From a virus: 61,958 nucleotides of DNA. The stretch lies in IMG/VR virus record IMGVR_UViG_3300025759_000095. The stretch is one strand, 5' to 3'. The position numbers and the translations under genes are program-made. Under the pieces are notes generated by a model. The model was not told the origin of the DNA. It saw nothing but the letters and a program-made list of their open reading frames with translations, and did no database searches. The number at the start of each line of letters is the position of its first letter. Position 1 is the stretch's first letter. This document shows, in pieces, positions 4,045-57,073 of this stretch.

Positions 4045-4046
4045 TA

Positions 4047-4211: not shown

Positions 4212-4215
4212 AAAA

Positions 4216-4479: not shown

Positions 4480-4480
4480 G

Positions 4481-4624
4481 ATGCCTATATTCATAGACAT
4501 AGGATTAAATATCGGAAGGAACGTGCAACCTGGATTCCCACCTCCAGGAAGTGATGAAATTATTTCACAACAATCCATACAGATGGTTGACGAAACAAGT
4601 AGTGACGATTTAATAACGGAATAA
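4481..4624 (+). CDS. Small acidic ORF (47 aa)
   Basis: My own translation: MPIFIDIGLNIGRNVQPGFPPPGSDEIISQQSIQMVDETSSDDLITE. It exactly fills the gap between 4479 and 4626. Confidence 0.3.
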   Translation: MPIFIDIGLNIGRNVQPGFPPPGSDEIISQQSIQMVDETSSDDLITE

Positions 4625-6806: not shown

Positions 6807-9104
6807 ATGGCAATAAAATTTTCACAATTCGTAGTAGAAACTAGTGCATCAACGATGAGCCATATTGTTGGTTATGATGGGGCGGATAATATACAAATCA
6901 CACCTAATAATTTCTTTACAAGTTTTGTAACGGGTACAGCCGGACAAGTACCCTTTTTTGGTAGCACAACTTCATTACTTGGAGATGATGATTTTTCCTG
7001 GGACAACTCAAATAAAAGATTAGGTATTGGAACTACTAGTCCGCTTGGTAAATTACAAGTTAACAAATACACAGTCGGATCACAAGGAAATCAAACTGTT
7101 CACGGAGAGCTAAGTGTTTTCGCAAACAACGGTGATGAATCTTTGTTTTTAGGAATAAAAGACGCTGCGTACCCAAACAGAGGTTGGGCTTTTAACCCAG
7201 TGATAACTGGTGTAAATTCAGATTTACAAATTAAAGAACATGGTAGTTCAGGTGTAAGAATGACCATACAATCAGGTGGTAACGTTGGAATTGGAACTAG
7301 TAGTCCTGGGACAACTCTTGATGTTGTTGGAACACTAGCATCATCAGGCATCACACAGCTAGGAACAGGGGGGTCTAATGTATTACTTACTTCTGCCGGC
7401 GGGGGCAACGTTGGAATTGGAACTAGTAGTCCTAGCACTAAATTATATGTTGACAATGGACAATCTACTTTTAATAGAGGTAACACATCGGGCACTATTG
7501 CTACATTTAGAGGTTTAAATTCTGCGCAAGCTGTTATTGGAACTGCCACATCATATTTTAACAGCAATGTAGGTATTGGAAATACTAACCCACAAAACAC
7601 ACTTCATTTAGGAAATAATGCAGTAGCAGCGGCAGGTGCTTTAAGAATAGATAGTTTTGTTGCAAATCAATATTGGAAAATTGAGCCAGGAACTAATACT
7701 TTAGGTATAAAAGATTATGATGGAAATTCTTTAATGACTTTAAATGGCTCAGACAATTCAGCAACTTTTGCAGGTAGTATTGTTATGGGAGGAGCAACTC
7801 TTGCTAATGGTTATATGATAGAAATGATACCAACTGGGGGTAATATACTTAGAAGCACAAGAGGAAGCTCTGTATTTGGGTCTTATCAATCTACTGATGG
7901 CCCAGTGTATTTTGGTACTACATCAAGTGATGATTTTGTATTAATTACTAATGATACGGCTAGATTAACTTTAAATGCTGCTGGTAATGCAACTTTTGCA
8001 GGTAGTGCAACTATAAGAAAATCTAGTTTAGGTGGTTCAACACCTATGGCTGATGGAAGTTTAGTTTTGGGTGCAGGGTCAACTGATTATTATAGTTTCA
8101 GATTAGATTCTAATGCTGATTTATATTTAGATAAAACCTTTGGTGGTACTGCTGCTAATGTTTTTAGTATTGATAGAAGCACAACAAATGGAAATATAAC
8201 TTTTGCAGGTAGTACAACTTTTAATGACCACACTAAACACCCTGACCAAGTTAAAGCAAGGTTTGGAACAGATGCAGATGCAACTCTTGAACATAATGGA
8301 AGTCATTTCTTTATGGACAATATAAAAGGAACTACATATTTTAGAAATACAGGTGCAAATTCATCAGGAATTATAATTAGAAATGGAGATGTTGGAGATA
8401 TTGAAATTGATAATGAAGTTGCAGCAAATATAAAGTTCAATACGAGCAATGTAGAAAGAATGCGTATTAATAGTACAGGTGATGTAGGTATTGGGACTAC
8501 TAATCCTCAATCAGGAGGGGGAGCAGCTAGTTGGCTAAGTTTAAACGGAACAGCAGCCTACTCAGGTGGAGTTGTTTATACAATAGGTTCCGTAACAAAA
8601 GCATATTCATATTTTGAAAGTGATTATTTAAAACAGCAAGCTCAAACAGGTTTTGGTCAAAAGTTTATAGTTGATGGAACTAATACAGCTATGACTATTT
8701 TATCAAACGGAGACGTAGGTATTGGAACTAGTAGTCCTGATAGTAAATTACATATAGAAGATACTTTAGGTGCAAATATTATTTTAAATTCAAATACAGG
8801 GGCGGTAAATAACGGTATCTATATGACAGAAGGTACTTCATCGGTACCTATGCAAGTTGGGGCTTATCTGTACTACAATGGTTCAACTAATAAATTTAAT
8901 ATAGCAACAGGTGTTGGTGTTCCAACTGACAAGTTAACAATATTAAGGGATTCAGGCAACGTAGGTATTGGTACTACTAGTCCTACAGCTAAGTTAACAG
9001 TAGTAGGTTTAGCAGAACATGCAGATAACGCTGCGGCAATTAGTGCGGGATTAACGACTGGTGCTTTTTACAGAACCGGTGATTTATTAAAAGTAGTACA
9101 TTAA
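6807..9104 (+). CDS. Tail fibre paralogue A2 (765 aa)
   Basis: Shares the N-terminal module (MAIKFSQFVVETSASTMSHIVGYDGADNIQITPNNF) and the C-terminal ADNAAAISAGLTTGAFYRTGDLLKVVH motif. It has six copies of G(N/D)VGIGT(S/T)(S/N)P..(K/T)L. Confidence 0.75.
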   Translation: MAIKFSQFVVETSASTMSHIVGYDGADNIQITPNNFFTSFVTGTAGQVPFFGSTTSLLGDDDFSWDNSNKRLGIGTTSPLGKLQVNKYTVGSQGNQTVHGELSVFANNGDESLFLGIKDAAYPNRGWAFNPVITGVNSDLQIKEHGSSGVRMTIQSGGNVGIGTSSPGTTLDVVGTLASSGITQLGTGGSNVLLTSAGGGNVGIGTSSPSTKLYVDNGQSTFNRGNTSGTIATFRGLNSAQAVIGTATSYFNSNVGIGNTNPQNTLHLGNNAVAAAGALRIDSFVANQYWKIEPGTNTLGIKDYDGNSLMTLNGSDNSATFAGSIVMGGATLANGYMIEMIPTGGNILRSTRGSSVFGSYQSTDGPVYFGTTSSDDFVLITNDTARLTLNAAGNATFAGSATIRKSSLGGSTPMADGSLVLGAGSTDYYSFRLDSNADLYLDKTFGGTAANVFSIDRSTTNGNITFAGSTTFNDHTKHPDQVKARFGTDADATLEHNGSHFFMDNIKGTTYFRNTGANSSGIIIRNGDVGDIEIDNEVAANIKFNTSNVERMRINSTGDVGIGTTNPQSGGGAASWLSLNGTAAYSGGVVYTIGSVTKAYSYFESDYLKQQAQTGFGQKFIVDGTNTAMTILSNGDVGIGTSSPDSKLHIEDTLGANIILNSNTGAVNNGIYMTEGTSSVPMQVGAYLYYNGSTNKFNIATGVGVPTDKLTILRDSGNVGIGTTSPTAKLTVVGLAEHADNAAAISAGLTTGAFYRTGDLLKVVH

Positions 9105-9107
9105 GAT

Positions 9108-12023
9108 ATGGCAATAAAGTTCTCTCAATTTATAACACAAACCAGCGCTTCTTCCCTTAGCCACATAGTAGGCTACAATGGAGCCGACAATATTCAGATA
9201 ACTCCCGCAAACTTTTTCACAAGCTTTGCTGTGGGAAACACAGGTCAGGTTTCATATTTTGACTCAGCCTCTTCTTTGGAAGGAAGCAATGAATTTTTCT
9301 GGGATAGTAGTAATAATAGATTAGGTATAGGAACTAATACTCCTACAGCAAAGTTGCAAATTGCTACTGATTATTCTAGCTCACCTCAACCATTTATATT
9401 TTTATCTAATAATGGATCAAATAACCCTGGTGGAGGTAGTGAAATTATTTTTGCTTCATCTATCTCTGCAACTACATCACTTTATAATGCAAAAATACAA
9501 GGTATTAGAAGTGCTTTAGATAATGGATCATCGGATTTGTTTTTTCAAACAACTCACGTATCAACATCTACTGCGCCTAGTACAAAAATGACAATTAAAT
9601 CTGATGGTAACGTGGGTATTGGAACTACTAGTCCATCTTCTAAACTACAAGTATCAGGAACTTTAGACGCAACAGGTATATCACAACTTGGATCTAGTGG
9701 TTCTAATGTATATTTAACATCTTCTAGTGCGGGTAGCGTTGGAATAGGAACTTCATCGCCTGTTTATAAATTAGATGTGACTGGAGACAGTAGTTCCGGA
9801 GTTATTGCTGTAAGAAACTTAGCTAATGGGAGAGATACTTTTAGATCTGAAAATGCAGCTGGAACTAGAACATTTAATATTGGTAATGACGCTAATGGTC
9901 ACGGTTTAGTATTAGTAAGAGGATCAGGTGGAACAGTTACTAATTATATAACTGGTAATGGCTATTCTTATTTTAATGGTGGTAACGTAGGTATTGGTAT
10001 TAGTAGTCCTGTTGCAAAACTACATGTTTATCAAAATAACTCAGATGATGACACAACAGCTGGGGTTACTATAGAACAAGATGGTACTGGTGATGCTGCT
10101 TTATCTTTCTTACTTTCAACTGTAAGAAGATGGAGATTAGGAATAGATAATAATGATCTTGATAAATTTAAAATTTCATCTTCTACTAATTTATCTACAA
10201 ATAATAAACTGACAATAGACGTAAATGGTAATGTAGGTATTGGAACTAGTAGTCCTGGTCAAAAATTAGCTGTAACAGGAAATATTGGTTTATCGGGGTC
10301 TGTACTTTTTGAAGATAATCAAGGTATCAATTTTGGTAATAGTAATGCAAGAATATATGGTTCAAGTAGCGATGGCATAAAGTTTAACGCAAATGGTTCG
10401 GAAGCAATGCGTTTAAATCAATCAGGCAAAGTAGGTATCGGAACGGCTAATCCTACTACCTGGAAACTAAATGTAGATAGTGGTGATATATATGCAGCGT
10501 CATTTGACACATCAAATAACACAGGTGTAGCTATAAACGGAAACAATACTACAGCTGCTCAGCTTTTAGGTTATTCTAATTCAGCATCAACTTATAATGA
10601 CTTAGACATTAGAGCTAATTCTACTCCTGGTAGTGGTATTTATATTGATGGTAGTGGGTCACACGTAGGTGTTGGAACTACTTCGCCAACTGCAAGATTT
10701 GAAATTCAACACCCACAACAAACTACTCAATTTGATAGAGATTGTTTCTTAAGATTACATCCATCTGCACAGACAGATTCTGGAGGATTTACAAATATGT
10801 TTTTTGGAACTTCTACAACTAATAATTATGGAGTTGCTATTGGTGGTTTAAGAGCAGGTTCAACTGATTCACCATCATTTAGTATTAGAATGCTCGATGA
10901 TGCTATTACAGGAACTGAAGTTTTTAATATTAGTAGTTCTGGTAATGCAACTTTTGCAGGTAATGTAACGTTATCAAGCACTAATCCTTTGTTACTTCTC
11001 GCTAACACAACATCTACAACTGGTAAAACTTGGAGGTTTAGTTCAGCACCAAATGGTAAATTATACATAACTCAAGAGGGTGTTGTAGACGCGGTTACAC
11101 TTGACCACACAACTGGTAACGCAACTTTTGCAGGGAATGTGGGAATTACAAATATACTTCATATAGATGGAGCGGCAACTGGTAGCCCTTATATTGACTG
11201 GAGACAAAATGGAAGTCAAAAAGCTTATATACAATATGCGGATACTGGAGATGATTTCAATATGTCATCTGATGGTAAAATGACATTTAAAACCAGTGGG
11301 GAAAATACAGTTCTTACCCTAGATACTTCACAAAACGCGACTTTTGCAGGAGATGTAACAACAAATGGAGAAATTAAAATAATTGATTCTTCGGCCACGG
11401 GGAATCCTAAATTGTCTTTTTATCAAACAACAAATGAAAGAGCGTATATACAGTATGCAGATACAGGAGAAAAACTAATTATTGATTCTGATTCATCATT
11501 AGTACTTAACACAAATAACACAGCAAGGTTAACAATAGATAGTAATGGTGTAATACAAAATGCAGACATAGATAATACAACAAGTGCAGCATTAAAAATT
11601 TCTAATAACGCAGCTGGTGGTAATTTTACTTATGGAATATCAATAGAAGATGATTCAACAAATACAGGATTAATTCTTTTTTCTAATGCTGCTGGAACTT
11701 CAATTGGTAGCATAACTCGTAGTGGTTCATCTACAGTATATGCCACATCTTCTGATTATAGATTAAAAGAAGATTTACAAGATTTTGCAGGATTAGATAT
11801 GATTTCTAAAATACCTGTGTACGATTTTAAATGGAAAGCAGATAACTCTAGTTCTTATGGAGTTATGGCTCATGAGTTACAAGATGTATTGCCAGATGCA
11901 GTTTCAGGTGAAAAAGACGGAGAAGAAATGCAGGGTGTAGATTACAGTAAAGTAGTACCATTATTAATAAAATCAATACAAGAGCTTAAGGCAGAAGTAG
12001 AAGATTTAAAATCAAAAATATAA
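9108..12023 (+). CDS. Tail fibre paralogue A3 (971 aa) with C-terminal S74-type intramolecular chaperone domain
   Basis: Shares the N-terminal module (MAIKFSQFITQTSASSLSHIVGYNGADNIQITPANF). It has many GNVGIGTSSP..KL motifs and repeated GNATFAGNV motifs. The C-terminal 91 aa (from nt 11748), SSDYRLKEDLQDF.GLD.ISKIPVYDFKWK...YGVMAHELQDVLPDAV....VDYSKVVPLLIKSIQELKAEVEDLK, match the autocleaving chaperone of endosialidase-type fibres. Confidence 0.85.
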   Translation: MAIKFSQFITQTSASSLSHIVGYNGADNIQITPANFFTSFAVGNTGQVSYFDSASSLEGSNEFFWDSSNNRLGIGTNTPTAKLQIATDYSSSPQPFIFLSNNGSNNPGGGSEIIFASSISATTSLYNAKIQGIRSALDNGSSDLFFQTTHVSTSTAPSTKMTIKSDGNVGIGTTSPSSKLQVSGTLDATGISQLGSSGSNVYLTSSSAGSVGIGTSSPVYKLDVTGDSSSGVIAVRNLANGRDTFRSENAAGTRTFNIGNDANGHGLVLVRGSGGTVTNYITGNGYSYFNGGNVGIGISSPVAKLHVYQNNSDDDTTAGVTIEQDGTGDAALSFLLSTVRRWRLGIDNNDLDKFKISSSTNLSTNNKLTIDVNGNVGIGTSSPGQKLAVTGNIGLSGSVLFEDNQGINFGNSNARIYGSSSDGIKFNANGSEAMRLNQSGKVGIGTANPTTWKLNVDSGDIYAASFDTSNNTGVAINGNNTTAAQLLGYSNSASTYNDLDIRANSTPGSGIYIDGSGSHVGVGTTSPTARFEIQHPQQTTQFDRDCFLRLHPSAQTDSGGFTNMFFGTSTTNNYGVAIGGLRAGSTDSPSFSIRMLDDAITGTEVFNISSSGNATFAGNVTLSSTNPLLLLANTTSTTGKTWRFSSAPNGKLYITQEGVVDAVTLDHTTGNATFAGNVGITNILHIDGAATGSPYIDWRQNGSQKAYIQYADTGDDFNMSSDGKMTFKTSGENTVLTLDTSQNATFAGDVTTNGEIKIIDSSATGNPKLSFYQTTNERAYIQYADTGEKLIIDSDSSLVLNTNNTARLTIDSNGVIQNADIDNTTSAALKISNNAAGGNFTYGISIEDDSTNTGLILFSNAAGTSIGSITRSGSSTVYATSSDYRLKEDLQDFAGLDMISKIPVYDFKWKADNSSSYGVMAHELQDVLPDAVSGEKDGEEMQGVDYSKVVPLLIKSIQELKAEVEDLKSKI

Positions 12024-15855: not shown

Positions 15856-16224
15856 ATGAAAATGAAAAAAACTATGCTTAATGCTGTGCAAAAAGTAAAA
15901 ATGGCAATGGGTAAAAAAATGCCTAAGCTATCTATGGAATATCCAAAAATGAATAAAGGTTTCGATTCACTACCTTCTGATGTCCAAAATAAGATTATGA
16001 AAAAGAAACCTAAAGTGACAAAGAAAGTAGGTACTGGAGAAGGAAGAGCTAAACGAAAAGCTATACTAGATAAAGTTAGAAAAAAAGGTGAAGCAAAAGT
16101 AAGCCAAGATGTAGAAGATAGAAATAAGCGTATAGGTGGAAGAAGTACAATGAGAGACCCTTTACCGCCTAGGATGGTGATGGCTAAGAAGAAGCCTAAA
16201 ATGGCTATGAGAAAGAAAAAGTAA
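15856..16224 (+). CDS. Lys/Met-rich highly basic protein (122 aa)
   Basis: Low-complexity K/M/R-rich sequence (MKMKKTM...KKKPKVTKK...MAKKKPKMAMRKKK). Confidence 0.5.
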   Translation: MKMKKTMLNAVQKVKMAMGKKMPKLSMEYPKMNKGFDSLPSDVQNKIMKKKPKVTKKVGTGEGRAKRKAILDKVRKKGEAKVSQDVEDRNKRIGGRSTMRDPLPPRMVMAKKKPKMAMRKKK

Positions 16225-16589
16225 TGGCATTTAATTTAAAAAATATTTATGAGGTTTTCGGACACAATAAAGAATTCTCTAACGGAGATAGAATTGTTGT
16301 GGAAAAAAAAATGTCTAAAAAAGTTTTAGGTCAAATAAATCCCAATGGTGTTATTGAGATAAATAAAGATGCAACACCTGCAAATAAACGCAGGGCAGTA
16401 AAGCATGAGCAAGTTCATCTAGATCAAATTAGATTAGGCTTGTTGCATTTTGATCATAACAATTATCATTATAGAGAAAGCATAACTTCACCAATTCAGA
16501 CAATACCAAGTAGTAAGATTAACACACACGACAGAAGTTTGCCGTGGGAAATACAAGCACACAATGGGCGAATTAAAAAAATGGGTTAA
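16224..16589 (+). CDS. Small HExxH-motif protein (121 aa), possible minimal metallopeptidase
   Basis: Contains RRAVKHEQVHLDQIRLGLLHFDH (HEQVH = HExxH, with further His downstream). The start overlaps the previous stop. Confidence 0.4.
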   Translation: MAFNLKNIYEVFGHNKEFSNGDRIVVEKKMSKKVLGQINPNGVIEINKDATPANKRRAVKHEQVHLDQIRLGLLHFDHNNYHYRESITSPIQTIPSSKINTHDRSLPWEIQAHNGRIKKMG

Positions 16590-16803
16590 ACAAAAATGGG
16601 TTCGTATCGGCACCGATGGTAAAATCAAAGGCCCTTGTGGTACGTCTAAAAACAAAAAGAATCCGGATAGGTGTTTGCCATTAGCGAAAGCTAGAAGATT
16701 AAGTAAAAAACAATTAGCAGCAACAGCTAAGAAAAAAAAGAGACAAGGTGGATCTCGTCAATTTGTTTCTAATACTAGTGCTGCAAAAGTAAGAAACGCG
16801 TAA
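16564..16803 (+). CDS. Small basic protein (79 aa)
   Basis: MGELKKWVKQKWVRIGTDGKIKGPCGTSKNKKNPDRCLPLAKARRLSKKQ... I recall a KWV.IG..G....PCG.........C.P..KA..LS pattern in small proteins of marine phages and large DNA viruses, but have not verified it. Confidence 0.5.
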   Translation: MGELKKWVKQKWVRIGTDGKIKGPCGTSKNKKNPDRCLPLAKARRLSKKQLAATAKKKKRQGGSRQFVSNTSAAKVRNA

Positions 16804-16804
16804 T

Positions 16805-17095
16805 ATGGCAACTAAAAAAAACATGCCATGTAATAAAGTGAGGCCATCTACAAGACCAGGTAAAAAGAAAATGGTAAAAGCTTGTGAGGGTGGTAGAGAA
16901 AAATTAATTCACTTTGGAGCTAAGGGTTACGGGCATAATTATTCTGCAGCAGCAAGAAAAAGTTTTAGAGCAAGACATAAGTGCGGAACAGCCAAATCAA
17001 AACTAACAGCGAGATATTGGGCGTGTAAAAAATTATGGGCAGGTAAGGGTGGAAGCACCAAGTCTTCACCTAAAAATAGACAGGGAAAATATTAG
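16805..17095 (+). CDS. Small basic protein (96 aa)
   Basis: KLIHFGAKGYGHNYSAAARKSFRARHKC....SKLTARYWACKKLW. From memory this resembles a widespread small viral protein family (..FG......RR..Y..RH......TAGFW....LW). Confidence 0.5.
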   Translation: MATKKNMPCNKVRPSTRPGKKKMVKACEGGREKLIHFGAKGYGHNYSAAARKSFRARHKCGTAKSKLTARYWACKKLWAGKGGSTKSSPKNRQGKY

Positions 17096-17131: not shown

Positions 17132-18544
17132 ATGGCAATTATACCTAACGCACAACAATTTCACACTTTATCGTCTACGGTAGATACTACAGAGAGAGGA
17201 TCAGCATTAGCCAATGCAAGTAGAGAGGTTTACACAATGCAAGATATTAAGGAGTCAATATCGGCAATAGATGGGTCGGGGGTACAATATGCTGTGCCTG
17301 TATTTACAGATGCAAATACTTTAACTAACCTACCAATAGGAGCAGCTGGACAAGTATTAACTTCTGGTGGTGCAGGATCAAACCCTTCATTTATAGATGT
17401 AGGTGTAAAAACCGGCACACAAAATACAGGAATAGGATTTGAAGCTGCATCTACAGGAAGCGGAGGTCAATATAATACGGTCTTTGGACATCAAGCAGGA
17501 ATAGGAGTATTAGGCACTAACTACAATACAATTATTGGGGCTTCAGCATTTCCAAATATAACAGGTAATAGTGCTAATAACACTACTGTTGGTATGTTTG
17601 CTATGAATTCAGGTTCCGATAATATTGAAAAATGTGTGGCTGTTGGTAATTTTGCGTTAAGGTATATTAGTAGATCTGCTTTAGGTGGTGAAAATACTGG
17701 GATAGGGTATAAAGCAGGGGAGGATATAACAACAGGTAATGGTAACGTATTTGTGGGAAGTGAAGCAGGAAAAAATTGCGATACTGGAAACCTCAACACA
17801 GGAATAGGGAAGTTAGCTTTATATAGTTGTACTGGTACTAATAACAACGTAGGAATAGGAAGTTCATCTTTATATAACTTATTAGCTGCAAACGCAAATG
17901 TTGCTGTAGGAAATACATCTTTAAATACACTTCAAAGTGGAGAAAAAAATGTTGCTATGGGACATCAAGCTGGATACGGAATTACAGGTAACGAAAATAT
18001 AGCTGTTGGGTGGAGCTCAGCATTTAATTCTTTGTCAGGAGACAACAATGTGGTAATAGGAAACTTTGCTAATGCGAGCGGCGCGGCTGTTTCAAATGAA
18101 ATTACTTTAGGAAACTCAAGTATAACAACTCTTAGATGTCAAGTTACTTCTATAACTTCTTTATCTGATGAAAGAGATAAAACGGACATAGTTGATTTAG
18201 ACAAAGGACTAGAAACAATAATGGCGCTAAAACCTAGAAAATTTGTATGGAACAATAGACCTGAGCAAACAATTAAAACATGTATTCCAAAACAAGTTGA
18301 TGAGGAAGGCAATGTTATTGAAGAAGAAGTGATTGAATATGATGAAGTAGTAAGTTCAAAAAAAGGAAGTAAAGACGTTGGGTTTATTGCTCAAGAACTT
18401 CAAACAGTAGACGATGATTTTCTTCAATTAGTATATGATGTTAATCCGGAAAAATTAGAAGCAAGTTATGGTAGACTGATTCCAGTATTAGTAAAAGCGA
18501 TACAGGACTTATCAGCTAAAGTAACAGAATTAGAAAATAAATAA
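17132..18544 (+). CDS. Tail fibre paralogue B1 (470 aa) with S74-type chaperone domain
   Basis: N-terminal module MAIIPNAQQFHTLSSTVDTTERGSALANASREVYTMQDI is shared with B2 and B3. The centre consists of short Gly/Asn-rich repeats (N..(I/V)G..A). The conserved junction NEITLGNSSITTLRCQVTSITSLSDERDK precedes the chaperone domain (from nt 18164), which ends ...YGRLIPVLVKAIQDLSAKV. Confidence 0.85.
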   Translation: MAIIPNAQQFHTLSSTVDTTERGSALANASREVYTMQDIKESISAIDGSGVQYAVPVFTDANTLTNLPIGAAGQVLTSGGAGSNPSFIDVGVKTGTQNTGIGFEAASTGSGGQYNTVFGHQAGIGVLGTNYNTIIGASAFPNITGNSANNTTVGMFAMNSGSDNIEKCVAVGNFALRYISRSALGGENTGIGYKAGEDITTGNGNVFVGSEAGKNCDTGNLNTGIGKLALYSCTGTNNNVGIGSSSLYNLLAANANVAVGNTSLNTLQSGEKNVAMGHQAGYGITGNENIAVGWSSAFNSLSGDNNVVIGNFANASGAAVSNEITLGNSSITTLRCQVTSITSLSDERDKTDIVDLDKGLETIMALKPRKFVWNNRPEQTIKTCIPKQVDEEGNVIEEEVIEYDEVVSSKKGSKDVGFIAQELQTVDDDFLQLVYDVNPEKLEASYGRLIPVLVKAIQDLSAKVTELENK

Positions 18545-18552
18545 AATTAATC

Positions 18553-20073
18553 ATGGCAATAATACCTACAGGACAACAATTTCACACCCTTTCATCTACG
18601 GTAAGTACACTTGAAAGAGGTTCTGCTTATGCAAATGCAAGCAGAGAATCATTTACAATGCAAGATATAATAGACACTATATCAGCAACAGGAGGAGCAA
18701 TTGACGGATCTGGTACAGCTAGAACAATTCCTTTTTTTACAGATTCTAATACTATTGGAGATTCGCCCTTGATAGTAAGCACTTTTGTCCCCGGTGATGG
18801 CTTAGCGCAAATAAAATTTACGGATGGGTATAGATTTATTATAAACAGACCAGCAACTGTAACTAGTGGAGATCAAGAATACGCAATTACTCAAGATGAT
18901 GTTAATAAAGTTTCATTCGGTTGGGATGATGATGGAGGTGGTTTTGGATTTTTATATAACTGGGCTGGATTTGGTTGGAGAATTGGAGCAGCAGGTAATA
19001 ATCCTATGCTTGAAATTGTTACAACTGCAGGATCAGAAAGTGTAAATCTTCATAAACAAGTTGAATTTAAAGATTACGGAAGTGGTACTTATACAGGTAC
19101 AGCAGCTTATACTCTAGCAGTTGATGCTAGTGGTAATGTAATAGAAGAAGCTGCTGGGGGCGGAGGAGTTCCTTTTATTTTAGGGGGAACAAATTTTGCA
19201 AACTCTCTTAAAGTTGGAGATACTACTACCGGTACATTAAGCGCTGCAGAGTATAATGTAGGAGTTGGTGTTGCCTCTATGGATGCTATCACAAGCGCCG
19301 ACAGTTGTACGGCAGTAGGCTGGAGCAGTCTTGGCACTCTTACATCAGGAGGAGACAATACAGCCATGGGAAGTTTGGCAGGTAACGGTATAAGTTCAGG
19401 ACAGAACAATGTAAATATTGGAGCGAAATCATGTCAAAGTGGTAATACAAATTATAGCACTGGTGTGGGAGCCAGAACTTTGAGGTTTGGAGCAGCAGGA
19501 GCGGATAATAATGTAGCAGTAGGGTTTAGTGCAGGTATACAAACAGAAGGAGCTCAAAACACAATGTTAGGAGCTCAAGCTGGAGGTAATTTAACTACAG
19601 GGGCTAACAATACAATTGTAGGGTATGACGCAGAGCCATCATCCGCTACAGTATCCAATGAAATAACTTTAGGTAATTCAAGTGTTTCTGTCATAAGAGC
19701 GGCTGTAACAAGCATAACTTCATTATCTGATGAAAGAGATAAAAAAGACATAAAAGACATTACATACGGATTGGATTTTGTAAGTAAACTACAACCAAGG
19801 GAATTTGTATGGGACAATAGAGCAGAAAAAAGAGTTGTATTAGATGACGAGGGTAATGTAGAAAGTGAAACAGAACATTACAGTGATAATAAAAACAAAA
19901 AAGATTTTGGATTTATTGCACAAGAAGTTCAGGTTCACGACGATGATACCTTAAGATTAATATACGATGCAAACCCTGATAAATTAGAAATGAGCTATGG
20001 TAAACTAGTGCCAATACTCGTAAAAGCGATACAGGACTTATCAGCTGAATTAGATAAAAAACAAGATAAATAA
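18553..20073 (+). CDS. Tail fibre paralogue B2 (506 aa) with S74-type chaperone domain
   Basis: N-terminal module MAIIPTGQQFHTLSSTVSTLERGSAYANASRESFTMQDI. The central region is unique. NEITLGNSSVSVIRAAVTSITSLSDERDKKDI (chaperone domain from nt 19726) ends ...YGKLVPILVKAIQDLSAEL. Confidence 0.85.
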   Translation: MAIIPTGQQFHTLSSTVSTLERGSAYANASRESFTMQDIIDTISATGGAIDGSGTARTIPFFTDSNTIGDSPLIVSTFVPGDGLAQIKFTDGYRFIINRPATVTSGDQEYAITQDDVNKVSFGWDDDGGGFGFLYNWAGFGWRIGAAGNNPMLEIVTTAGSESVNLHKQVEFKDYGSGTYTGTAAYTLAVDASGNVIEEAAGGGGVPFILGGTNFANSLKVGDTTTGTLSAAEYNVGVGVASMDAITSADSCTAVGWSSLGTLTSGGDNTAMGSLAGNGISSGQNNVNIGAKSCQSGNTNYSTGVGARTLRFGAAGADNNVAVGFSAGIQTEGAQNTMLGAQAGGNLTTGANNTIVGYDAEPSSATVSNEITLGNSSVSVIRAAVTSITSLSDERDKKDIKDITYGLDFVSKLQPREFVWDNRAEKRVVLDDEGNVESETEHYSDNKNKKDFGFIAQEVQVHDDDTLRLIYDANPDKLEMSYGKLVPILVKAIQDLSAELDKKQDK

Positions 20074-20079
20074 TATGCT

Positions 20080-21495
20080 ATGGCAATAATCCCCACAGGG
20101 CAGCAATTTCACACTTTATCATCTACGGTAAGTACACTTGAAAGAGGTTCTGCTTATGCAAATGCAAGCAGAGAATCATACACAATGCAAGATATACTAG
20201 ATACTGTGTCAGCAGGCGGAGGAGGATTTCCATTTTTAATAGACACACAATCTTTATACGCTGGCTATGTTCCGCAGTTTTTATCAGGAAACCCACAAGG
20301 AAATACGTTTTTAGGAATTGACACTGGTCAATACCACACTACAGGTGTATCTAATACTGCTATAGGTTACAAAGCAATGGTTGGAGGATTTGATGGAGAG
20401 GGTGATGAATGTGTGTTTATTGGTTATGAAGCAGGGCTAGGTAACAATACTGAAGATAGAAACGTCGGTATTGGATACCGAGCAGCACTTTCCCCCTCTG
20501 GTAATGACAACGTAGCTGTAGGCCATAACGCTCAATCAGGAAATTCTAAAAATGTTTCAATAGGTTCTCAAGCAGGAGCTAATTTAAGTAGTGGTGCTGA
20601 AAATGTATTTATGGGAGCAAATGCTGGAGATGCTTTAACATCTGGAGATAGAAACATAGCAATTGGTACTGATGCATTAGGAGCAGCTACTGCATGTAGT
20701 GAAAACGTAGCAATAGGAGACGATGCTTTAGCTTCAAATAATGTATCTGGTAATTGGAATGTAGGTATAGGGAAAAGTGCTTTAAAAGTATTAACTAGCG
20801 GACAAAGAAACGTTGCTATGGGTGGATACTTTGCCGGAGACGCTTTAACAACGGGGTCGAATAATACAACAATAGGCTTTTGGAGTTTAAGCGCAGAGCA
20901 AACAGGAAGTGGAAACGTTGCGTTAGGTGAAAGCGCATTAAAAGGTCAAAACGCATCAACAACTACCTCTAATGCAAATATAGGTATAGGATATAGCGCT
21001 GGTAGTTCTTTATCAACCGGGACCAATAATATTGTTATAGGTACTAACGCTCAAGCTTCAAGCGCTACTGTAACAAATGAAATAACTTTAGGTAATTCTA
21101 GCATTACAGTAATAAGGGCAGCTGTAACAAGTATAACTTCTTTATCTGATGAAAGAGATAAAAAAGATATAGAAGATTTAGACACGGGATTAAATTTCGT
21201 GAATGCATTAAAACCTCGTAAATTTGTATGGGACAACAGAAGTGAAACAATAACAGAGCAGCAGATTGATGAAAATGGTGACATTACTGATATAGAAAAA
21301 GAATTAATAAATTCTAATAAAGGTAAAAAAGACTTTGGATTTATAGCTCAAGAAGTTAAATCATTAGATAATGACACTTTAAGATTAATATACGACGAAA
21401 ATCCTGACAAACTAGAAATGAGCTATGGTAAACTAGTGCCAATACTAGTAAAAGCAATACAAGAATTATCAGCTGAATTAGATTTGTTAAAGTAA
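20080..21495 (+). CDS. Tail fibre paralogue B3 (471 aa) with S74-type chaperone domain
   Basis: N-terminal module MAIIPTGQQFHTLSSTVSTLERGSAYANASRESYTMQDI. The central region is unique. NEITLGNSSITVIRAAVTSITSLSDERDKKDI (chaperone domain from nt 21145) ends ...YGKLVPILVKAIQELSAEL. Confidence 0.85.
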   Translation: MAIIPTGQQFHTLSSTVSTLERGSAYANASRESYTMQDILDTVSAGGGGFPFLIDTQSLYAGYVPQFLSGNPQGNTFLGIDTGQYHTTGVSNTAIGYKAMVGGFDGEGDECVFIGYEAGLGNNTEDRNVGIGYRAALSPSGNDNVAVGHNAQSGNSKNVSIGSQAGANLSSGAENVFMGANAGDALTSGDRNIAIGTDALGAATACSENVAIGDDALASNNVSGNWNVGIGKSALKVLTSGQRNVAMGGYFAGDALTTGSNNTTIGFWSLSAEQTGSGNVALGESALKGQNASTTTSNANIGIGYSAGSSLSTGTNNIVIGTNAQASSATVTNEITLGNSSITVIRAAVTSITSLSDERDKKDIEDLDTGLNFVNALKPRKFVWDNRSETITEQQIDENGDITDIEKELINSNKGKKDFGFIAQEVKSLDNDTLRLIYDENPDKLEMSYGKLVPILVKAIQELSAELDLLK

Positions 21496-21542: not shown

Positions 21543-21800
21543 ATGAGTGAACAAGTAAAAAAAGTAAGTGAAGAACATTTAAGTAAACTTCAAGAATTAA
21601 ACCAACAATTCACCACCATGCATCAACAAGTTGCTGAGCTAGAGGTAAGAAAATTCCAGGTAGTTGCTGGTATTGAAACTTTAAGAGCTGAGTTTAAAAC
21701 TTTTGAAGGCGAGTTAATTAAAGAATACGGAGACAACGTAGTTATTAATTTACAAACTGGTGAAATAAAAGACAAACCAGAAGATGGCGAAAATAAGTAA
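21543..21800 (+). CDS. Small coiled-coil protein (85 aa)
   Basis: Heptad-like charged sequence (LSKLQELNQQFTTMHQQVAELEVRKFQVVAGIETLRAEFKTFEGEL). Confidence 0.5.
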   Translation: MSEQVKKVSEEHLSKLQELNQQFTTMHQQVAELEVRKFQVVAGIETLRAEFKTFEGELIKEYGDNVVINLQTGEIKDKPEDGENK

Positions 21801-22332
21801 TATAACAGCATACCCTACAATTAGTAATTTAGAAGGAAGCGATTATTTAATTATAACAGATGCGAATAATTCCTTAGCAACTAAAACTGTAACTCTTTCA
21901 CAAGTTCAAAGTTTTTTAGGTTTAGCTTCGGATTCTCCTGTAATAGCAAATGTTTCTGTAAGTAGCGCAACCTTATTAACATTAGCTACTACGCCAGCAA
22001 CTTTAGTTGCAGCACCAGGAGCAGGAAAAGTTCTTGATATAATAAGCATAATGTGTTATATGGACGCAGGGGCAACTCCTTATGATTTCACACCTAGTTT
22101 GCCAGTTAAAATAGGTTCTGAAACGATAGGATCGGTTTCAAATGGCGGAACAGCTATGAATACAGCTGTGGACGCAGTTTTTAAACCTGAGACTCCTAAC
22201 TCCTCTACAGAAATTATAGCGCAAAACACTGCGTTAACTTTACACGCTGGTGGAAGTAATCCTACACAGGGCACAGGAGTTTTATATGTAAATGTATACT
22301 ACAGGGTGTTAACTGTCGGTTCAAGCTTCTAA
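21784..22332 (+). CDS. Tail-fibre-like / tail-associated protein (182 aa)
   Basis: The N-terminus MAKISNITAYPTISNLEGSDYLIITDANNSLATKTVTLSQVQSFLG follows the I(S/T).(L/I)......L...D.L.I.D......TK..T...(L/V) attachment motif I associate with podophage fibre N-termini. It is loosely similar to the A-family N-termini. Confidence 0.5.
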   Translation: MAKISNITAYPTISNLEGSDYLIITDANNSLATKTVTLSQVQSFLGLASDSPVIANVSVSSATLLTLATTPATLVAAPGAGKVLDIISIMCYMDAGATPYDFTPSLPVKIGSETIGSVSNGGTAMNTAVDAVFKPETPNSSTEIIAQNTALTLHAGGSNPTQGTGVLYVNVYYRVLTVGSSF

Positions 22333-22337: not shown

Positions 22338-22562
22338 ATGGATATTAGGAAGATTTCAATAGGCTCGGACTATAAGTCTAGTGCTATGCACTATCTTGTA
22401 GGTCAATCAATTTTAGGCGGCTCATATACTATTCATTTAATTCAATACGAAAGCAGCAGTGATTCAATAAAAATATGGATAGAAAGGCAAAATGAAATAT
22501 TACTATGGAAAGAGTTTAATTCTAACATGCCTATATCTATAGAATATAATATTAATTTTTAA
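22338..22562 (+). CDS. Hypothetical protein (74 aa)
   Basis: ORF tightly packed between neighbours. No motif recognised. Confidence 0.45.
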   Translation: MDIRKISIGSDYKSSAMHYLVGQSILGGSYTIHLIQYESSSDSIKIWIERQNEILLWKEFNSNMPISIEYNINF

Positions 22563-23125
22563 TGAAATCCCCACACTATTTTATCGTAAAACCTTTGAAG
22601 GGTAGAAGGTATGATAATATAAAAAAAATAGGTGGAATAGATTTTTATACTAGCGTATCACAGGAAGATCACACGGCTACAAACCGATTTGCAGAAGTTG
22701 TAAGCACCCCTTTAAATTACAAAGGTGATATAGACAAGGGGGATATTCTGTTAGTTCATCATAATGTATTTAAGATATATTATGACATGAAGGGTAGGGA
22801 AAAAAGTGGTAGAAGTTTTTTCAAAGAGGATTTGTTTTTTATAGACTATGATCAGTTTTATATGTATTGCAAAAATAATAAATGGAAAACTCATTCAAAG
22901 TATTGTTTCATAAAACCTGTTTCAGTTCGTGAATCCATAATCATGAAGCCAGTTGAAGAAGAGCCATTAGTGGGTATTGTTAAATACACTAATCCTATAT
23001 TGACAAAACTAGGCGTAAAAGAAAATGATGAAGTGGTGTTTGAGCCAGAATGCGAATATCCATTTTACATAAATGGAGAGAAACTCTACAGGATGTTTTG
23101 GAATAATATAACTATGGTATTATGA
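22562..23125 (+). CDS. Hypothetical protein (187 aa) with possible Cpn10/GroES-like beta-barrel segments
   Basis: YFIVKPLKGRRYDNIKKIGGIDFYTS...FAEVVSTP....IDKGDILLVHHNVF, and a second segment LVGIVKYTNP...LGVKENDEVVFEPECEYPFYINGEKLYRM, loosely follow the GroES pattern (KPL.DRV.V......T.GGI.L....G.V.AVG....VK.GD.V.F). The resemblance is weak and by eye only. Confidence 0.3.
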   Translation: MKSPHYFIVKPLKGRRYDNIKKIGGIDFYTSVSQEDHTATNRFAEVVSTPLNYKGDIDKGDILLVHHNVFKIYYDMKGREKSGRSFFKEDLFFIDYDQFYMYCKNNKWKTHSKYCFIKPVSVRESIIMKPVEEEPLVGIVKYTNPILTKLGVKENDEVVFEPECEYPFYINGEKLYRMFWNNITMVL

Positions 23126-23400
23126 AGTCATCAGAAGATTTAAAGTTAGATATAATTAGCGCAGGAAGAGAGGCTGTAGCTCAGCTTATTAAAGTTGCTA
23201 AAGAAGATATAATTAAGTACGATAAAGATGATGAGTTGGCGGCAGATAGATTAAAAAATGCAGCGGCTACAAAAAAGCTAGCTATATTCGATGCGTTTGA
23301 AATATTAACTAGAATTGAATTAGAAAAAGATTTGTTGAACGGAGTAGAAAAAGAAGAGGAAAAATCAAGACAGGGGTTTGCAGAAAGAAGGTCAAAATAA
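23122..23400 (+). CDS. Small helical protein (92 aa), small terminase subunit candidate by position
   Basis: Lies immediately upstream of, and overlaps by 23 nt, the large terminase gene. Charged helical composition. No motif evidence. Confidence 0.3.
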   Translation: MKSSEDLKLDIISAGREAVAQLIKVAKEDIIKYDKDDELAADRLKNAAATKKLAIFDAFEILTRIELEKDLLNGVEKEEEKSRQGFAERRSK

Positions 23401-25624
23401 ATTATACAAAGTAGTTGATAATCATATATCTAAGCAGTCTATGCTTAAGATGAATCAAAATAAATCTTGGCAATATGGATACAATCCCAAGCACGATTTA
23501 GTTGTGATTAGTAAAGACGGAACTATAGGTGAAATTTATAATATAAATGGTTTACTAATAGGATTGCCTAAAGCACCTAAAAACATATATAAAAATTCAA
23601 AAAAATCAGTCGATCAATATTGGCTTGCCTTTGAATACCCCAAATCATTATCACGAATCAATTCAATATTTCAATGGCATGAAATGAGTAGTGAATTTAA
23701 AAATGAATGGGTAAACTATATAGAGTCTGAGTTTGATAGAAGAGAGGAAGGGTTTTGGTTTTACAACAAGGGCGTGCCTACATATATAACAGGTACACAC
23801 TACATGTATTTACAGTGGACTAAAATAGATATAGGAAAGCCAGAGTTTAGAGAGGCTAATAGAATATTTTATATATTTTGGGAAGCTTGTAAAGCGGACA
23901 AAAGAAGCTTTGGAATGTGTTATCTTAAAATTAGACGTTCAGGTTTTTCGTTTATGGGGTCTTGTGAAGCTGTTAATACAGCTACAATTAGCAAGGATGC
24001 AAGAGTAGGTATACTATCTAAAACAGGATCCGATGCAAAAAAAATGTTTACTGACAAAGTAGTACCTATATCTAATAACTATCCTTTCTTTTTTAAACCT
24101 ATACAAGATGGTATGGATAGACCCAAGACAGAATTGGCTTACAGGGTGCCAGCTTCTAAGATAACAAAAAAGAATATGTTTGAAACAGAAGATGAAGAAC
24201 TGGAGGGATTAGATACAACCATCGACTGGAAAAATACTGCAGATAATAGTTATGATGGTGAGAAACTAAAACTACTAATTCATGATGAATCAGGTAAATG
24301 GCTTAAGCCAGACAATATTATAAATAACTGGAATGTTACTAAAACCTGTTTAAGATTAGGTAGTAAAGTTATAGGAAAATGTATGATGGGTTCTACTTCA
24401 AATGCATTGGATAAGGGAGGTGAAAATTTTAAAAAATTATTCTACAATTCTGATGTAACTAAAAGAAATCAAAACGGTCAAACCAAAAGTGGATTATATA
24501 ATTTGTTTATACCTATGGAATGGAACTTTGAAGGCTACATAGATAAGTATGGTATGCCGGTATTTAACACACCTGATACAGGGATAGAGGGTTCGGATGG
24601 TGAATTAATATATCAAGGCGCATTAAATTATTGGGAAAATGAAGTGGAGTCATTGAAGAAGGATCCAGACGTATTAAATGAATTTTACAGGCAGTTTCCA
24701 AGAACAGATTCTCATGCCTTTAGAGATGAGAGTAAACAATCTTTGTTTAACCTAACTAAAATTTATCAGCAAATTGATTACAATGATTCTTTAATTAAAG
24801 AGCATTATTTAACAAGAGGTAGATTTAGTTGGAAAGATGGAATAAAAGATACTAAGGTGGTTTGGTCACCTGACAACAGGGGTAGATTTTTAGTATCATG
24901 GATACCAGAAAAAAACTTACAAAACTGTAGGGTAAATCAAAATGGAAAGTATCTTCCAGGTAACGAACACTTAGGTAGTTTTGGTTGTGATTCCTATGAC
25001 ATATCCGGAACAGTTGGCGGTGGAGGATCAAACGGCGCTTTACATGGATTAACTAAATTTAACATGGATAACGCTCCTAGTAATGAATTCTTTTTAGAAT
25101 ACGTAGCTAGGCCTCAAACAGCAGAATTGTTTTTTGAAGATGTTTTAATGGCTTGTGTTTTTTATGGAATGCCTATATTAGTAGAAAATAATAAACCGAG
25201 ATTGCTGTACCATTTTAAAAATAGGGGGTATAGAAAATACTGCATGAATCGACCAGATAAAATATTTAATAAACTTTCTAAATCTGAAAAAGAAATAGGA
25301 GGAATACCTAATTCTTCTGAAGAAGTAAAACAAGCTCACGCAAGTGCGATTGAAAGTTATATAGAGAAACATGTAGGAATGGATATGGATGGTATGTTTA
25401 GGGAAAAATTAGATATGGGCTCTATGTATTTTAACCGAACTTTAGAGGATTGGGCAAGGTTCAATATTAATAACCGAACTAAGTTTGATGCGACTATTAG
25501 TTCTGGGTTGGCTATTATGGCTAATCAAAAGCACTTATATACACCACAAAAAAAAGAGTCAAAAATAAAGATTAACTTTGCAAGGTATAATAATAAAGGA
25601 TTATATAGCGAAATACGCAATTAA
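23378..25624 (+). CDS. terL: Terminase large subunit
   Basis: 748 aa. Degenerate Walker A-like KIRRSGFS, Walker B/catalytic LLIHDESGKW, coupling-type GSTSN, and a downstream acidic nuclease-like CDSYD. It abuts a portal-sized gene with a TAATG overlap. Confidence 0.7.
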   Translation: MQKEGQNKLYKVVDNHISKQSMLKMNQNKSWQYGYNPKHDLVVISKDGTIGEIYNINGLLIGLPKAPKNIYKNSKKSVDQYWLAFEYPKSLSRINSIFQWHEMSSEFKNEWVNYIESEFDRREEGFWFYNKGVPTYITGTHYMYLQWTKIDIGKPEFREANRIFYIFWEACKADKRSFGMCYLKIRRSGFSFMGSCEAVNTATISKDARVGILSKTGSDAKKMFTDKVVPISNNYPFFFKPIQDGMDRPKTELAYRVPASKITKKNMFETEDEELEGLDTTIDWKNTADNSYDGEKLKLLIHDESGKWLKPDNIINNWNVTKTCLRLGSKVIGKCMMGSTSNALDKGGENFKKLFYNSDVTKRNQNGQTKSGLYNLFIPMEWNFEGYIDKYGMPVFNTPDTGIEGSDGELIYQGALNYWENEVESLKKDPDVLNEFYRQFPRTDSHAFRDESKQSLFNLTKIYQQIDYNDSLIKEHYLTRGRFSWKDGIKDTKVVWSPDNRGRFLVSWIPEKNLQNCRVNQNGKYLPGNEHLGSFGCDSYDISGTVGGGGSNGALHGLTKFNMDNAPSNEFFLEYVARPQTAELFFEDVLMACVFYGMPILVENNKPRLLYHFKNRGYRKYCMNRPDKIFNKLSKSEKEIGGIPNSSEEVKQAHASAIESYIEKHVGMDMDGMFREKLDMGSMYFNRTLEDWARFNINNRTKFDATISSGLAIMANQKHLYTPQKKESKIKINFARYNNKGLYSEIRN

Positions 25625-55628: not shown

Positions 55629-56360
55629 TTATAAATCTTGTTCCACATAGAATGTTTCGTTTCCGATTACATATTTATTATAATAATCTATTGCCTGTAA
55701 TACTTTGTCTTCTCCATGCTGTCTTGCCCAGTCAGATGAAACCTGAAACTTGCCAAGTATTTTATTTTTTTTACACACAACAAAGAATAACATTGGTTTG
55801 CCAAACATTTTTTCATACAACCACGCCTGACATGAGTAATAGTAGTCTGTAAAACTATACTTAAACCTATGTATGTTACTGGTTGTCTTTAAATCTATGA
55901 TATGATGAGGAGAAATTACATCGGCTTTTCCTTTCCAAATTGTATTCTGAATTTTAATCAGCCCTGGCTTTTCATACTCATTTTGATCGTCATATATATA
56001 TGGTGCAAACTCATCATTGCTTTGCATTATGTTTGCCAACTCCATTGCCAACTCACTTTCTTCGATAGTTAAAATCTTTTTATTAGATTTCCATGCCTCT
56101 TCAAATTTTTTAGTCCGTCTTGATTTCACATCAATAAAATCGTATAGCTTTGCTTTGTATGGCTCTAGCATCAACGCATGAAAATAAATTCCAAACTCAA
56201 AATTAGCAATAGACAAATGATCATGATCTACTTTCTTATAAAATTCGTAGGGAGCGTTAAGTATCGTACCTATTTTAGATTGAGATAGGTACTGACTTCC
56301 GAACTCACCATAGTAGTCCTCATCATTCTCAAGTCTTTTAAGAATTTCTTCTTCTGTCAT
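55629..56360 (-). CDS. PD-(D/E)XK family exonuclease (RecB/Cas4/YqaJ-like), 243 aa
   Basis: Core motifs GKADVISPHHIIDLKTTS (D...(D/E)xK) and a downstream YYYSCQAWLYEKMFG (QxxxY). The gene lies directly upstream of the annealase gene. Confidence 0.7.
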   Translation of the reverse strand: MTEEEILKRLENDEDYYGEFGSQYLSQSKIGTILNAPYEFYKKVDHDHLSIANFEFGIYFHALMLEPYKAKLYDFIDVKSRRTKKFEEAWKSNKKILTIEESELAMELANIMQSNDEFAPYIYDDQNEYEKPGLIKIQNTIWKGKADVISPHHIIDLKTTSNIHRFKYSFTDYYYSCQAWLYEKMFGKPMLFFVVCKKNKILGKFQVSSDWARQHGEDKVLQAIDYYNKYVIGNETFYVEQDL

Positions 56361-56419: not shown

Positions 56420-57073
56420 TTATTTAACAGATTTTGTATTTCCTTTAACTTTTTCTTGTTCATTTTTAATTTTGTTGAGTTCTTGTTTTAATTTTTTTAA
56501 TGTAGCTACATCAGGATTATGTCTTTTCTTTACCTGTGCCATAACTGATTCAATACTATGCTCCATGTTTTGCTTATATACTTTTAAAGTATTTGAAAAC
56601 TTTTCTGAGCCATACATATATGCATCACCAATCTTTTCAACCTTGACAGGTTTTACTGCAATTACTTTATCGCTAACATCAACCAGATCTTCCCCCGCCC
56701 ACAATGACAATCCTAATCCATGCATTGCAATTGCTTTTACCGTACTTCTTTGTATGGTTTTATTGACATGAAACGAACTAACTCTATCAATTGTAAGTGA
56801 GTTGTTTCTATTATCCATGACAGGAAGATAATCAATATGCTCTATGTCATTGATCGTAACACCTACTTTAACGTAAGCTGTTTTTCCGTCAGTAAAATAA
56901 TTTAAACCTGTGTGTTCACTTTCGTAAACCTTTCTTGTGCTATCAGGATATTTATCTTTAACTATTGCCCAAGCATATGCCCAAGACAAATAACTAAATC
57001 CCCCTTTGCTTTTTAACTTATCGTCTATACTTATAGCCGTAAGCTCTTTAAACGTTGATTTCATTTTTCCCAT
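56420..57073 (-). CDS. Rad52-family single-strand annealing protein (Sak-like), 217 aa
   Basis: The N-terminal GGFSYLSWAYAWAIVKDKYPD matches the (Y)LSWA.AW motif I associate with Sak/DUF1071 annealases. Gene context (exonuclease plus SSB-like protein) supports the call. Confidence 0.6.
   Translation of the reverse strand: MGKMKSTFKELTAISIDDKLKSKGGFSYLSWAYAWAIVKDKYPDSTRKVYESEHTGLNYFTDGKTAYVKVGVTINDIEHIDYLPVMDNRNNSLTIDRVSSFHVNKTIQRSTVKAIAMHGLGLSLWAGEDLVDVSDKVIAVKPVKVEKIGDAYMYGSEKFSNTLKVYKQNMEHSIESVMAQVKKRHNPDVATLKKLKQELNKIKNEQEKVKGNTKSVK

Follow-up and report, generated by a model that had tools for sequence, protein, structure and literature searches.

Three consecutive genes, B1, B2 and B3, on a stretch of viral DNA of 61,958 nucleotides (nt) (IMG/VR record IMGVR_UViG_3300025759_000095; the whole stretch is called the window below) most probably form a hypervariable array of paralogous fiber or spike genes whose bodies are swapped as cassettes, a reading to which we assign a probability of about three in four. 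The source phage appears from its genes to be an uncultivated marine podovirus related to podoviruses of Flavobacteriaceae. In a preliminary description made from the letters of the window, the three genes had been read as tandem fibers with an autocleaving C-terminal chaperone, and two identical tracts had been taken as a sign of ongoing recombination among them. Recombination among the B paralogs is real, and the comparison with related genomes supports it far better than do the two tracts.

The three open reading frames (ORFs) had exactly the coordinates and lengths first described (Table 1). They lie on the same strand, with gaps of 8 nt between B1 and B2 and 6 nt between B2 and B3. Each consists of five parts: a putatively docking N-terminal module (N-module) of 45 amino acids (aa), a Gly-rich linker or collar, a cassette-specific solenoid body, an invariant junction, and a Peptidase_S74 chaperone. 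The patterns proposed earlier for the N-module and the junction matched all three proteins in the alignment. Nucleotide identity among the genes was 70 to 89% in the N-module and 67 to 75% in the junction and C terminus, and 45 to 51% in the central part, which at this level is essentially unalignable, in agreement with the description of the central regions as different. At least 18 contigs of independent samples, k=141 assemblies included, have the same gene order as the window, and an assembly chimera as the source of the array was ruled out by this recurrence.

The array in near-identical genomes

The window was compared with related viral loci (L003, L004 and so on), the flanks of the compared relatives being 93 to 96% identical to those of the window. 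L006, with flanks 94 to 96% identical, has no B1, and its second gene carries the N-module and C terminus of B3 around an unrelated body. The breakpoints correspond to window positions 20205 and 21073, that is, to the end of the N-module and the start of the NEITLG junction, respectively. The array of L004 consists of a 409-aa gene followed by a B3-like and then a B2-like gene, so that the order of B2 and B3 is permuted, and the array of L005 contains 409-aa, 356-aa and B2-like genes. Orthologs of B2 were found as the first gene of L006 (97% aa identity) and as the third genes of L004 and L005, and the ortholog of B3 was the second gene of L004, at another array position. B1 has an ortholog in L015 (73% aa identity), and the first gene of L035 also encodes 470 aa with an S74 domain. 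TerL and portal proteins were 88 to 99% identical in L003 to L021, and the core proteins of the relatives were 91 to 99% identical; the B proteins reached only about 40 to 50% across relatives unless the same cassette was carried.

The 3' ends, aligned on the VKAIQ motif, behaved differently according to the body. In the pair with the same body (B3 and the second gene of L004), near-identity extended up to the motif and had given way to unrelated sequence some 25 nt beyond it. Genes with different bodies (B1 versus L004, L005 and the second gene of L003; B2 versus L004, L005 and the first gene of L003) were unlike upstream of the motif and 100% identical from the motif through the stop codon. 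For B2 versus L005 and the first gene of L003, the identity ran almost unbroken across the intergenic spacer to the next ATG. The last 10 or so codons of each array gene track the next array element and not their own body, and the final gene of every compared array (window and L003 to L006) ends in …ELDLLK and runs into the common downstream flank. Similarity follows the body type up to the 27-mer encoding VKAIQDLSA and the array position from there on, the change falling exactly at this 27-mer, which is therefore the 3' crossover zone.

Both over-long tracts of identity and mosaic relationships that are incongruent from segment to segment were found in this locus, as in a recombining array. 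The comparison points to a cassette-shuffling locus with the 61-nt tract described below as its 5' crossover zone and the VKAIQ 27-mer as its 3' one, and exchange appears to occur between genomes as well as between paralogs.

Identical tracts shared by the paralogs

B2 and B3 had been described as sharing a tract of 60 nt at 100% identity. The identity was confirmed, and the tract measured 61 nt (Table 1). Conversion was assessed by a GENECONV-like permutation of polymorphic sites in a codon alignment of the three genes, the kind of check that the preliminary description had proposed. Across the tract, 19 polymorphic sites in a row agreed between B2 and B3 (P = 0.0001 when all alignable modules were included, and P = 0.0004 for the N-module alone). 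That these sites are free to vary is evident from B1, which departs from the other two genes at 19 positions of the tract; between B2 and B3 there are zero synonymous changes. Weaker tracts were detected between B1 and B3 (32 nt; P = 0.007 to 0.013) and in the C-terminal module of B2 and B3 (34 nt; P = 0.007). As for the stretch that B1 and B2 had been said to share near their 3' ends, the 27-mer is present in both; with 3 informative sites, it is not significant when taken alone (P = 0.63 to 0.73).

The 61-nt tract is nearly invariant (0 to 5 differences) in all class II modules of close relatives, and the surrounding 89 nt contain 16 to 32 differing positions between paralogs. Inside it, B2 and B3 of the window share the states ACA and TAT, and the paralog pair of L004 shares ACC and TTT. 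Paralogs that are identical within a genome and different between genomes are a signature of concerted evolution. In the wider family (608 non-orthologous pairs), conservation of the tract region was comparatively low for the module (0.54 to 0.72 identity), and the conservation peaks were located at QQFHT, TMQDI, SDERDK and VKAIQ. Thus, the tract region is not specially conserved family-wide, and the perfect identity of B2 and B3 does not reflect a general constraint. An imperfect palindrome, TCTGCTT-ATGCAAATGCA-AGCAGA, lies within the tract at 18618-18645 and 20145-20172.

The N-module family

The N-module, with the consensus MA.IP..Q(K/Q)FHT….V.T..rGSa.an..Re.yTMQDI, was 75 to 92% identical (aa) among B1, B2 and B3 over 48 residues. 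A profile of the three modules had matches on 29 viral and 69 metagenome contigs (several from TARA), and an exhaustive hidden Markov model search of 1.84 billion representative proteins yielded 380 N-module clusters. The sources of these clusters were without exception aquatic viral contigs and metagenomes, most of them marine. The module began at residue 1 in 145 of the 150 best cluster representatives. Two giant proteins matched by the profile (P0127 and P0144) were rejected as spurious, repeat-driven matches. Neither the 50,697 deposited phage genomes (searched by tblastn) nor 185,579 genomes of bacteria and archaea yielded a match to the module, which therefore gives no direct clue to the host.

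Proteins with the module ranged from fewer than 100 to 685 aa, and only about one-quarter of those with at least 300 aa carried a B-type S74 C terminus. The 159 complete N-module proteins comprised 66 distinct body clusters. Bodies also occur on other anchors: that of B3 was found at 79 to 88% identity on another N-domain of about 100 aa (P0010 and P0011), and related bodies were found on type-A anchors starting with MANKKFSQF…. Among 32 unique, fully contained arrays, 15 had one module gene, 7 had two and 10 had three; none had more than three. This ceiling could correspond to a structural limit on docking sites or merely to sample size. The gaps between successive module genes were mostly of 2 to 22 nt.

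The module is therefore one short sequence, conserved within the lineage at the extreme N terminus and joined to diverse bodies, as docking sequences are. It can be regarded as a putative, previously undescribed and strictly N-terminal anchor, and it would dock all B paralogs to one kind of virion site. Two further forms were also observed: P0002 (3 ENA contigs) is a "collapsed cassette" of 47 aa in which the N-module is joined straight to the …QLKAELDLLK tail, and in P0005 the first 33 residues of the module are fused to a GroES C terminus. By appearance, both arose by deletion or recombination, or are chimeras of the assembly.

Junction, chaperone and solenoid body

The junction consensus of the three proteins was NEITLGNSS(I/V)x(T/V)(L/I)RxxVTSITSLSDERDK. 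It leads into a Peptidase_S74 domain (PF13884) with scores of 40.2, 41.1 and 37.7 bits in B1, B2 and B3, respectively (cut-off, 22). In each protein, the Ser of SDERDK (S345, S392 and S356, respectively) is the very first residue of the match. SDERDK is invariant in the three proteins, and the S, D, R and K of SDxRxK are invariant across 11 family members, so that all three contain the S-x4-K arrangement of a catalytic Ser and a Lys five residues downstream, like the Ser1264/Lys1269 dyad of T5 pb1 (PMC4690869). By analogy with pb1, the Ser is predicted to be activated by this Lys, the predicted scissile bonds being L344-S345 (B1), L391-S392 (B2) and L355-S356 (B3), and autocleavage would free some 115 to 126 residues. 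The predicted mature proteins hardly differ from one another in their last 24 or so residues, so receptor specificity is probably set along the solenoid body.

A search of the PDB with the B3 sequence alone gave no match, and a family profile was needed; with it, the tail-fiber chains 8jov and 6f45 were matched. B1 matched PHROG families annotated as virion structural protein and tail spike. A DNA search of deposited phages returned only short matches, in the S74 region. The AlphaFold2 model of B3 had a predicted local-distance difference test score (pLDDT) of 75 overall, with a confident solenoid at aa 70 to 340 (pLDDT, 80 to 94) that contains one short strand per 17 or so residues. In Foldseek comparisons, the solenoid body resembled viral S74, FhaB-like and YadA-like proteins. 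The best PDB matches of the model were the MyRF ICA 7dc3, with a probability of 1.00 but an E value of 0.1, and the endoNF IMC 3gw6 (E, about 2), the chaperone domain being modeled at pLDDT 51 to 85. A viral library gave 98 matches at E ≤ 0.001, and the named ones at the top were mostly S74/ICA, FhaB-like and YadA-like. B2 has an extra N-proximal domain at aa 50 to 175 that is not in B1 or B3. A domain of the type-A' fibers (634 to 694 aa) of L014, L015 and L054 matches it at 55% identity. The model of this extra domain is uninformative, pLDDT being below 50 over aa 43 to 216 of B2.

Table 1. Positions of the array genes, their modules and associated features in the window
Feature	Position	Strand	Basis or remark
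B1, 470 aa: class I N-module, collar, solenoid body, junction, S74 chaperone	17132..18544	+	
B2, 506 aa: class II N-module, extra domain of ~150 aa, solenoid, junction, S74 chaperone	18553..20073	+	
B3, 471 aa: class II N-module, solenoid, junction, S74 chaperone	20080..21495	+	
N-module of B1, 45 codons	17132..17266	+	Alignment, profile
N-module of B2	18553..18687	+	
N-module of B3	20080..20214	+	
61-nt tract, B2 copy (putative 5' homology arm/conversion tract)	18592..18652	+	Identity, permutation
61-nt tract, B3 copy	20119..20179	+	
27-mer encoding VKAIQDLSA, B1 copy (3' crossover zone)	18491..18517	+	Identical copy in B2 at 20020-20046; variant in B3 at 21448-21474
Junction NEITLGNSS…SL/SDERDK, B1	18095..18181	+	Alignment
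Junction, B2	19657..19743	+	Alignment
Junction, B3	21076..21162	+	Alignment
S74 intramolecular chaperone, B1 (aa 345-470)	18164..18541	+	Pfam PF13884
S74 chaperone, B2	19726..20070	+	Pfam PF13884
S74 chaperone, B3	21145..21492	+	Pfam PF13884
85-aa helical, coiled-coil-like protein (predicted)	21543..21800	+	Co-inherited with the array
182-aa protein with type-A' fiber N terminus	21784..22332	+	Sits in the canonical single-fiber slot of relatives
ExoVIII-like exonuclease	55629..56360	-	Candidate recombination machinery
Sak-like single-strand annealing protein	56420..57073	-	Candidate recombination machinery

Companion protein and other fiber-type genes

The gene of an 85-aa protein directly follows the array in L003 to L021 and in L026 and, in the window, overlaps the start of the gene at 21784 by 17 nt. 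In L023, L024 and L029 it lies elsewhere on the contig, apart from the module gene. Neither of the two B-less relatives examined has it, and tblastn gave no match to it in the 50,697 deposited phage genomes. Its co-occurrence with the array, within one clade, makes it a candidate docking partner, adaptor or assembly factor.

Three further fibers, array A (4626-6803, 6807-9104 and 9108-12023), share the N terminus MAIKFSQF…VGY.G.DNIQITP.NF, and their shaft repeats (GNVGIGT.SP..KL.V) matched the Bdellovibrio MAT proteins 8ond, 8oml and 8ojn by sequence (E values down to 1e-10). Together with B1 to B3 and the 182-aa protein, they make up the seven proteins with fiber-type N termini that had been counted in the window, a count that is correct by reading of the sequences. 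The description of array B as an unrelated family was only partly borne out, given that the third array-A protein, and it alone within that array, also has an S74 domain. In L020, a 971-aa protein of array-A type (1624-4539) carries a B-type junction and S74 domain (NQITLGNTS…ISDERDK), which indicates that modules also move between arrays A and B.

In the two relatives MW202828.1 and elemoE, a single fiber gene is located between the lysis genes and TerL. Its product starts with MPKINTYT… or MARIKTYT…, unlike the B N-module; this N terminus resembles that of the window gene at 21784 and, more loosely, those of array A. The fiber slot of these relatives thus holds another type of N terminus, and the B N-module is a distinctive element of the window.

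Proposed mechanism

We propose that the conserved 5' and 3' modules serve as homology arms. Crossovers in the N-module (at the 61-nt tract) and in either the VKAIQ 27-mer or the NEITLG junction would relocate whole bodies, which would shift between array positions and between co-infecting genomes, the ends of the paralogs being homogenized in the process. The outcome would be near-identical phages with differing sets of one to three fibers on a common anchor. By homology, the chaperone would drive trimerization of each protein and then cut itself off before the conserved Ser, between L and SDERDK. The ExoVIII-like and Sak-like proteins encoded by the window may constitute a Red-like pair with the short homology arms of the cassettes as possible substrates, and would be a plausible catalyst of the exchange. 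A more far-reaching version, which we regard as unlikely, holds that the N-module and the 85-aa protein form a new docking system, unrelated to T4gp10-type branching, that takes up to three interchangeable fibers, and that the short identical arms (61-nt tract and 27-mer) are retained as substrates of the Sak-like protein and the exonuclease. The locus would then be a dedicated "plug-and-play" host-range generator and not a passive product of recombination.

Several points weigh against cassette swapping as set out here. The 27-mer shared by B1 and B2 does not carry significance by itself, and the permutation test presupposes that polymorphic sites are exchangeable. The N-module has no known homolog and was modeled at pLDDT below 55 in an AlphaFold2 monomer, a poor model being expected if the segment orders only within a complex. 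Metagenomic contigs are population consensus sequences, which reveal neither when and in what direction the events occurred nor whether genes were exchanged within or between genomes. The part given to the Sak-like and ExoVIII-like proteins is purely inferential, and we infer likewise the presence of the B proteins in the virion, their attachment site, their receptor binding and their cleavage.

Alternative explanations

The recurrence of similar ends could also stem from an old tandem triplication without ongoing recombination, the ends having stayed alike through purifying selection on docking and chaperone functions. The shared modules are indeed under functional constraint at the protein level, and an AT-rich codon bias lowers synonymous variation. 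Against this explanation stand a tract with zero synonymous changes between two paralogs, in which the third differs at 19 sites and which lies in a region not specially conserved across the family, and the genome-specific states shared by paralogs. The permuted order, cassette loss and body swaps among near-identical genomes, together with the position-specific 3' tails, also contradict it; this explanation is largely refuted, and we give it next to no weight. An equally slim chance was accorded to the identity of the tract being kept by a function at the nucleotide level, for example in RNA folding (a hairpin), translation, packaging or regulation. The hairpin TCTGCTT…AAGCAGA allows the 61-mer to fold at -13.7 kcal/mol (z = -1.9), and 7 of 200 shuffled sequences folded as well. 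This z value is weak, and the effect vanishes in a 141-nt context (z = -1.45 and +0.40); moreover, the hairpin is absent from the equivalent region of B1, and the tract region is, as seen in the 608 pairs, one of the module's less conserved parts.

The other two alternatives concern the place of the B proteins on the virion. In the preliminary description, the seven fiber-like proteins were assigned to a branched adsorption apparatus of the CBA120 or G7C kind, which would be a hierarchical complex (CBA120 TSP1-4, G7C gp63.1/gp66) with T4gp10-like domains for docking in some members. The seven genes with at least two anchor types are compatible with it, the co-inherited 85-aa protein could be an adaptor, and secondary receptor-binding proteins (RBPs) of K1-5, G7C and KP32 attach via short conserved N-terminal docking sequences (PMC6872550). 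Nevertheless, a branching domain, T4gp10-like or of another known kind, was found neither in Pfam at E ≤ 10 (B1 to B3, the first two array-A proteins, and the 85-aa and 182-aa proteins) or at E ≤ 0.01 (the third array-A protein), nor by PDB sequence search (array A, the 182-aa protein and B3) or Foldseek of the B3 model, array A being covered at the sequence level only. In addition, B1 to B3 carry one common anchor, unlike the CBA120 tailspikes with their distinct N termini, which argues for a shared docking site over a hierarchical branch. The assignment was thus not upheld, and a branched complex seems improbable to us. Somewhat better placed, although still unlikely, is the possibility that the B proteins are appendages of the neck, collar or head that aid reversible adhesion, like phi29 gp12, and not tail-tip fibers. 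In L022 to L025, L027 and L028, a single N-module gene lies outside the fiber slot upstream of TerL. Its immediate downstream neighbors are ORFs (about 383 and 484 aa) whose lengths match those of the putative scaffold (393 aa) and capsid (476 aa) proteins of the window. The canonical fiber anchor of the wider group is of type A or A', not B, and phi29 appendages likewise use an autocleaving C-terminal chaperone (PMC4690869). None of the present results speaks against such a placement. The hypervariability of the locus, similar to that of host-recognition islands (PMC3909814), favors a role in specificity, yet it fits neck appendages too.

Comparison with known systems

Like the S74 fibers and spikes (K1F endosialidase, the L-shaped fiber pb1 of T5 and phi29 gp12), the B proteins end in a PF13884 domain whose first residue is a conserved Ser, followed by a Lys at a distance of five residues, and they have a conserved junction ahead of the cleavage site; their own trimerization and self-cleavage are predicted by homology. 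Unlike in K1F and T5 pb1, the bodies are narrow solenoids with repeats of about 17 residues (YadA/FhaB-like), with no endosialidase or pb1 "bullet," and three paralogs stand in tandem.

In the published scheme, T4gp10-like domains on a primary RBP or an adaptor receive the secondary RBPs, which dock there with a short, conserved peptide at the N terminus (PMC6872550). In the K1-5/SP6, G7C gp63.1 and Klebsiella KP32/KP34 groups (Latka et al. 2019, PMC6872550), the short N terminus is conserved within the lineage and the rest is variable, as in the B proteins; several RBPs per virion and a synteny broken at the RBP locus are further points of likeness. By contrast, the 45-aa B module has no sequence similarity to these peptides, no T4gp10-like adaptor was detected in the window, and up to three B paralogs carry the same module, versus one secondary RBP per docking site. 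With CBA120 TSP1-4 and G7C gp63.1-gp66 the array has in common multiple clustered RBP genes, multiple specificities being plausible; however, the B bodies are not recognizable depolymerase tailspikes, and their N termini are identical rather than hierarchical. The receptor-binding and multi-receptor roles first ascribed to the B proteins are putative.

Hypervariable host-recognition islands, conserved N termini, and YadA-like and S74 fiber domains are already established in marine phages (PMC3909814). Like the metaviromic islands (Mizuno et al. 2014, PMC3909814), the B locus is a hypervariable host-recognition locus with a variable distal part in a conserved marine genome; unlike in those islands, the exchange units and crossover zones could be mapped to the nucleotide, and the genes form a tandem array with position-specific 3' tails. 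The MAT fibers of Bdellovibrio (8ond, 8oml and 8ojn; PMC10769870) likewise form a trimeric family in which the proximal part is conserved and the distal parts are exchanged, but they are bacterial, and their sequence similarity concerns array A, not B.

The locus is a clear example of a known phage route to host-range change. Modular, recombining RBPs and S74 chaperones were already known, and no new principle is involved; new are the anchor family, the same-anchor tandem array of up to three genes and the precise mapping of the exchange units. The locus offers a nucleotide-resolution view of how host-recognition proteins diversify in an abundant lineage of uncultivated marine phages whose relatives infect Flavobacteriaceae, revealing exchange units, crossover zones, array sizes of one to three and at least 66 alternative bodies. 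Also brought to light is a family of N-terminal anchors that lacks annotation and comprises 380 clusters, with no member from an isolated phage; the natural module boundaries could guide RBP engineering.

Source phage and other genes of the window

TerL (23378-25624) was 71% identical to the TerL of MW202828.1, an uncultivated podovirus with a circular genome of 60.8 kb, and about 45% identical to those of the Flavobacterium "elemo" podoviruses. It also matched Cellulophaga, Tenacibaculum and Maribacter phages, all below 60% identity. PHROG annotation of the window identified portal, capsid and large virion proteins, GroEL, GroES, a holin and an M15 peptidase. A scan for sigma-70 promoters and terminators gave no enrichment, such a scan being unsuited to Bacteroidota-type promoters. 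GroEL is located at 825-2420 and GroES at 2543-2800, and a second, longer GroES-like protein is encoded just upstream of TerL (22562-23125); all three genes are also present in MW202828.1 and elemoE. Directly upstream of B1, four small, strongly basic proteins (122, 121, 79 and 96 aa) are encoded at 15856-17095, the 96-aa one being kept even in B-less relatives (75% and 50%).

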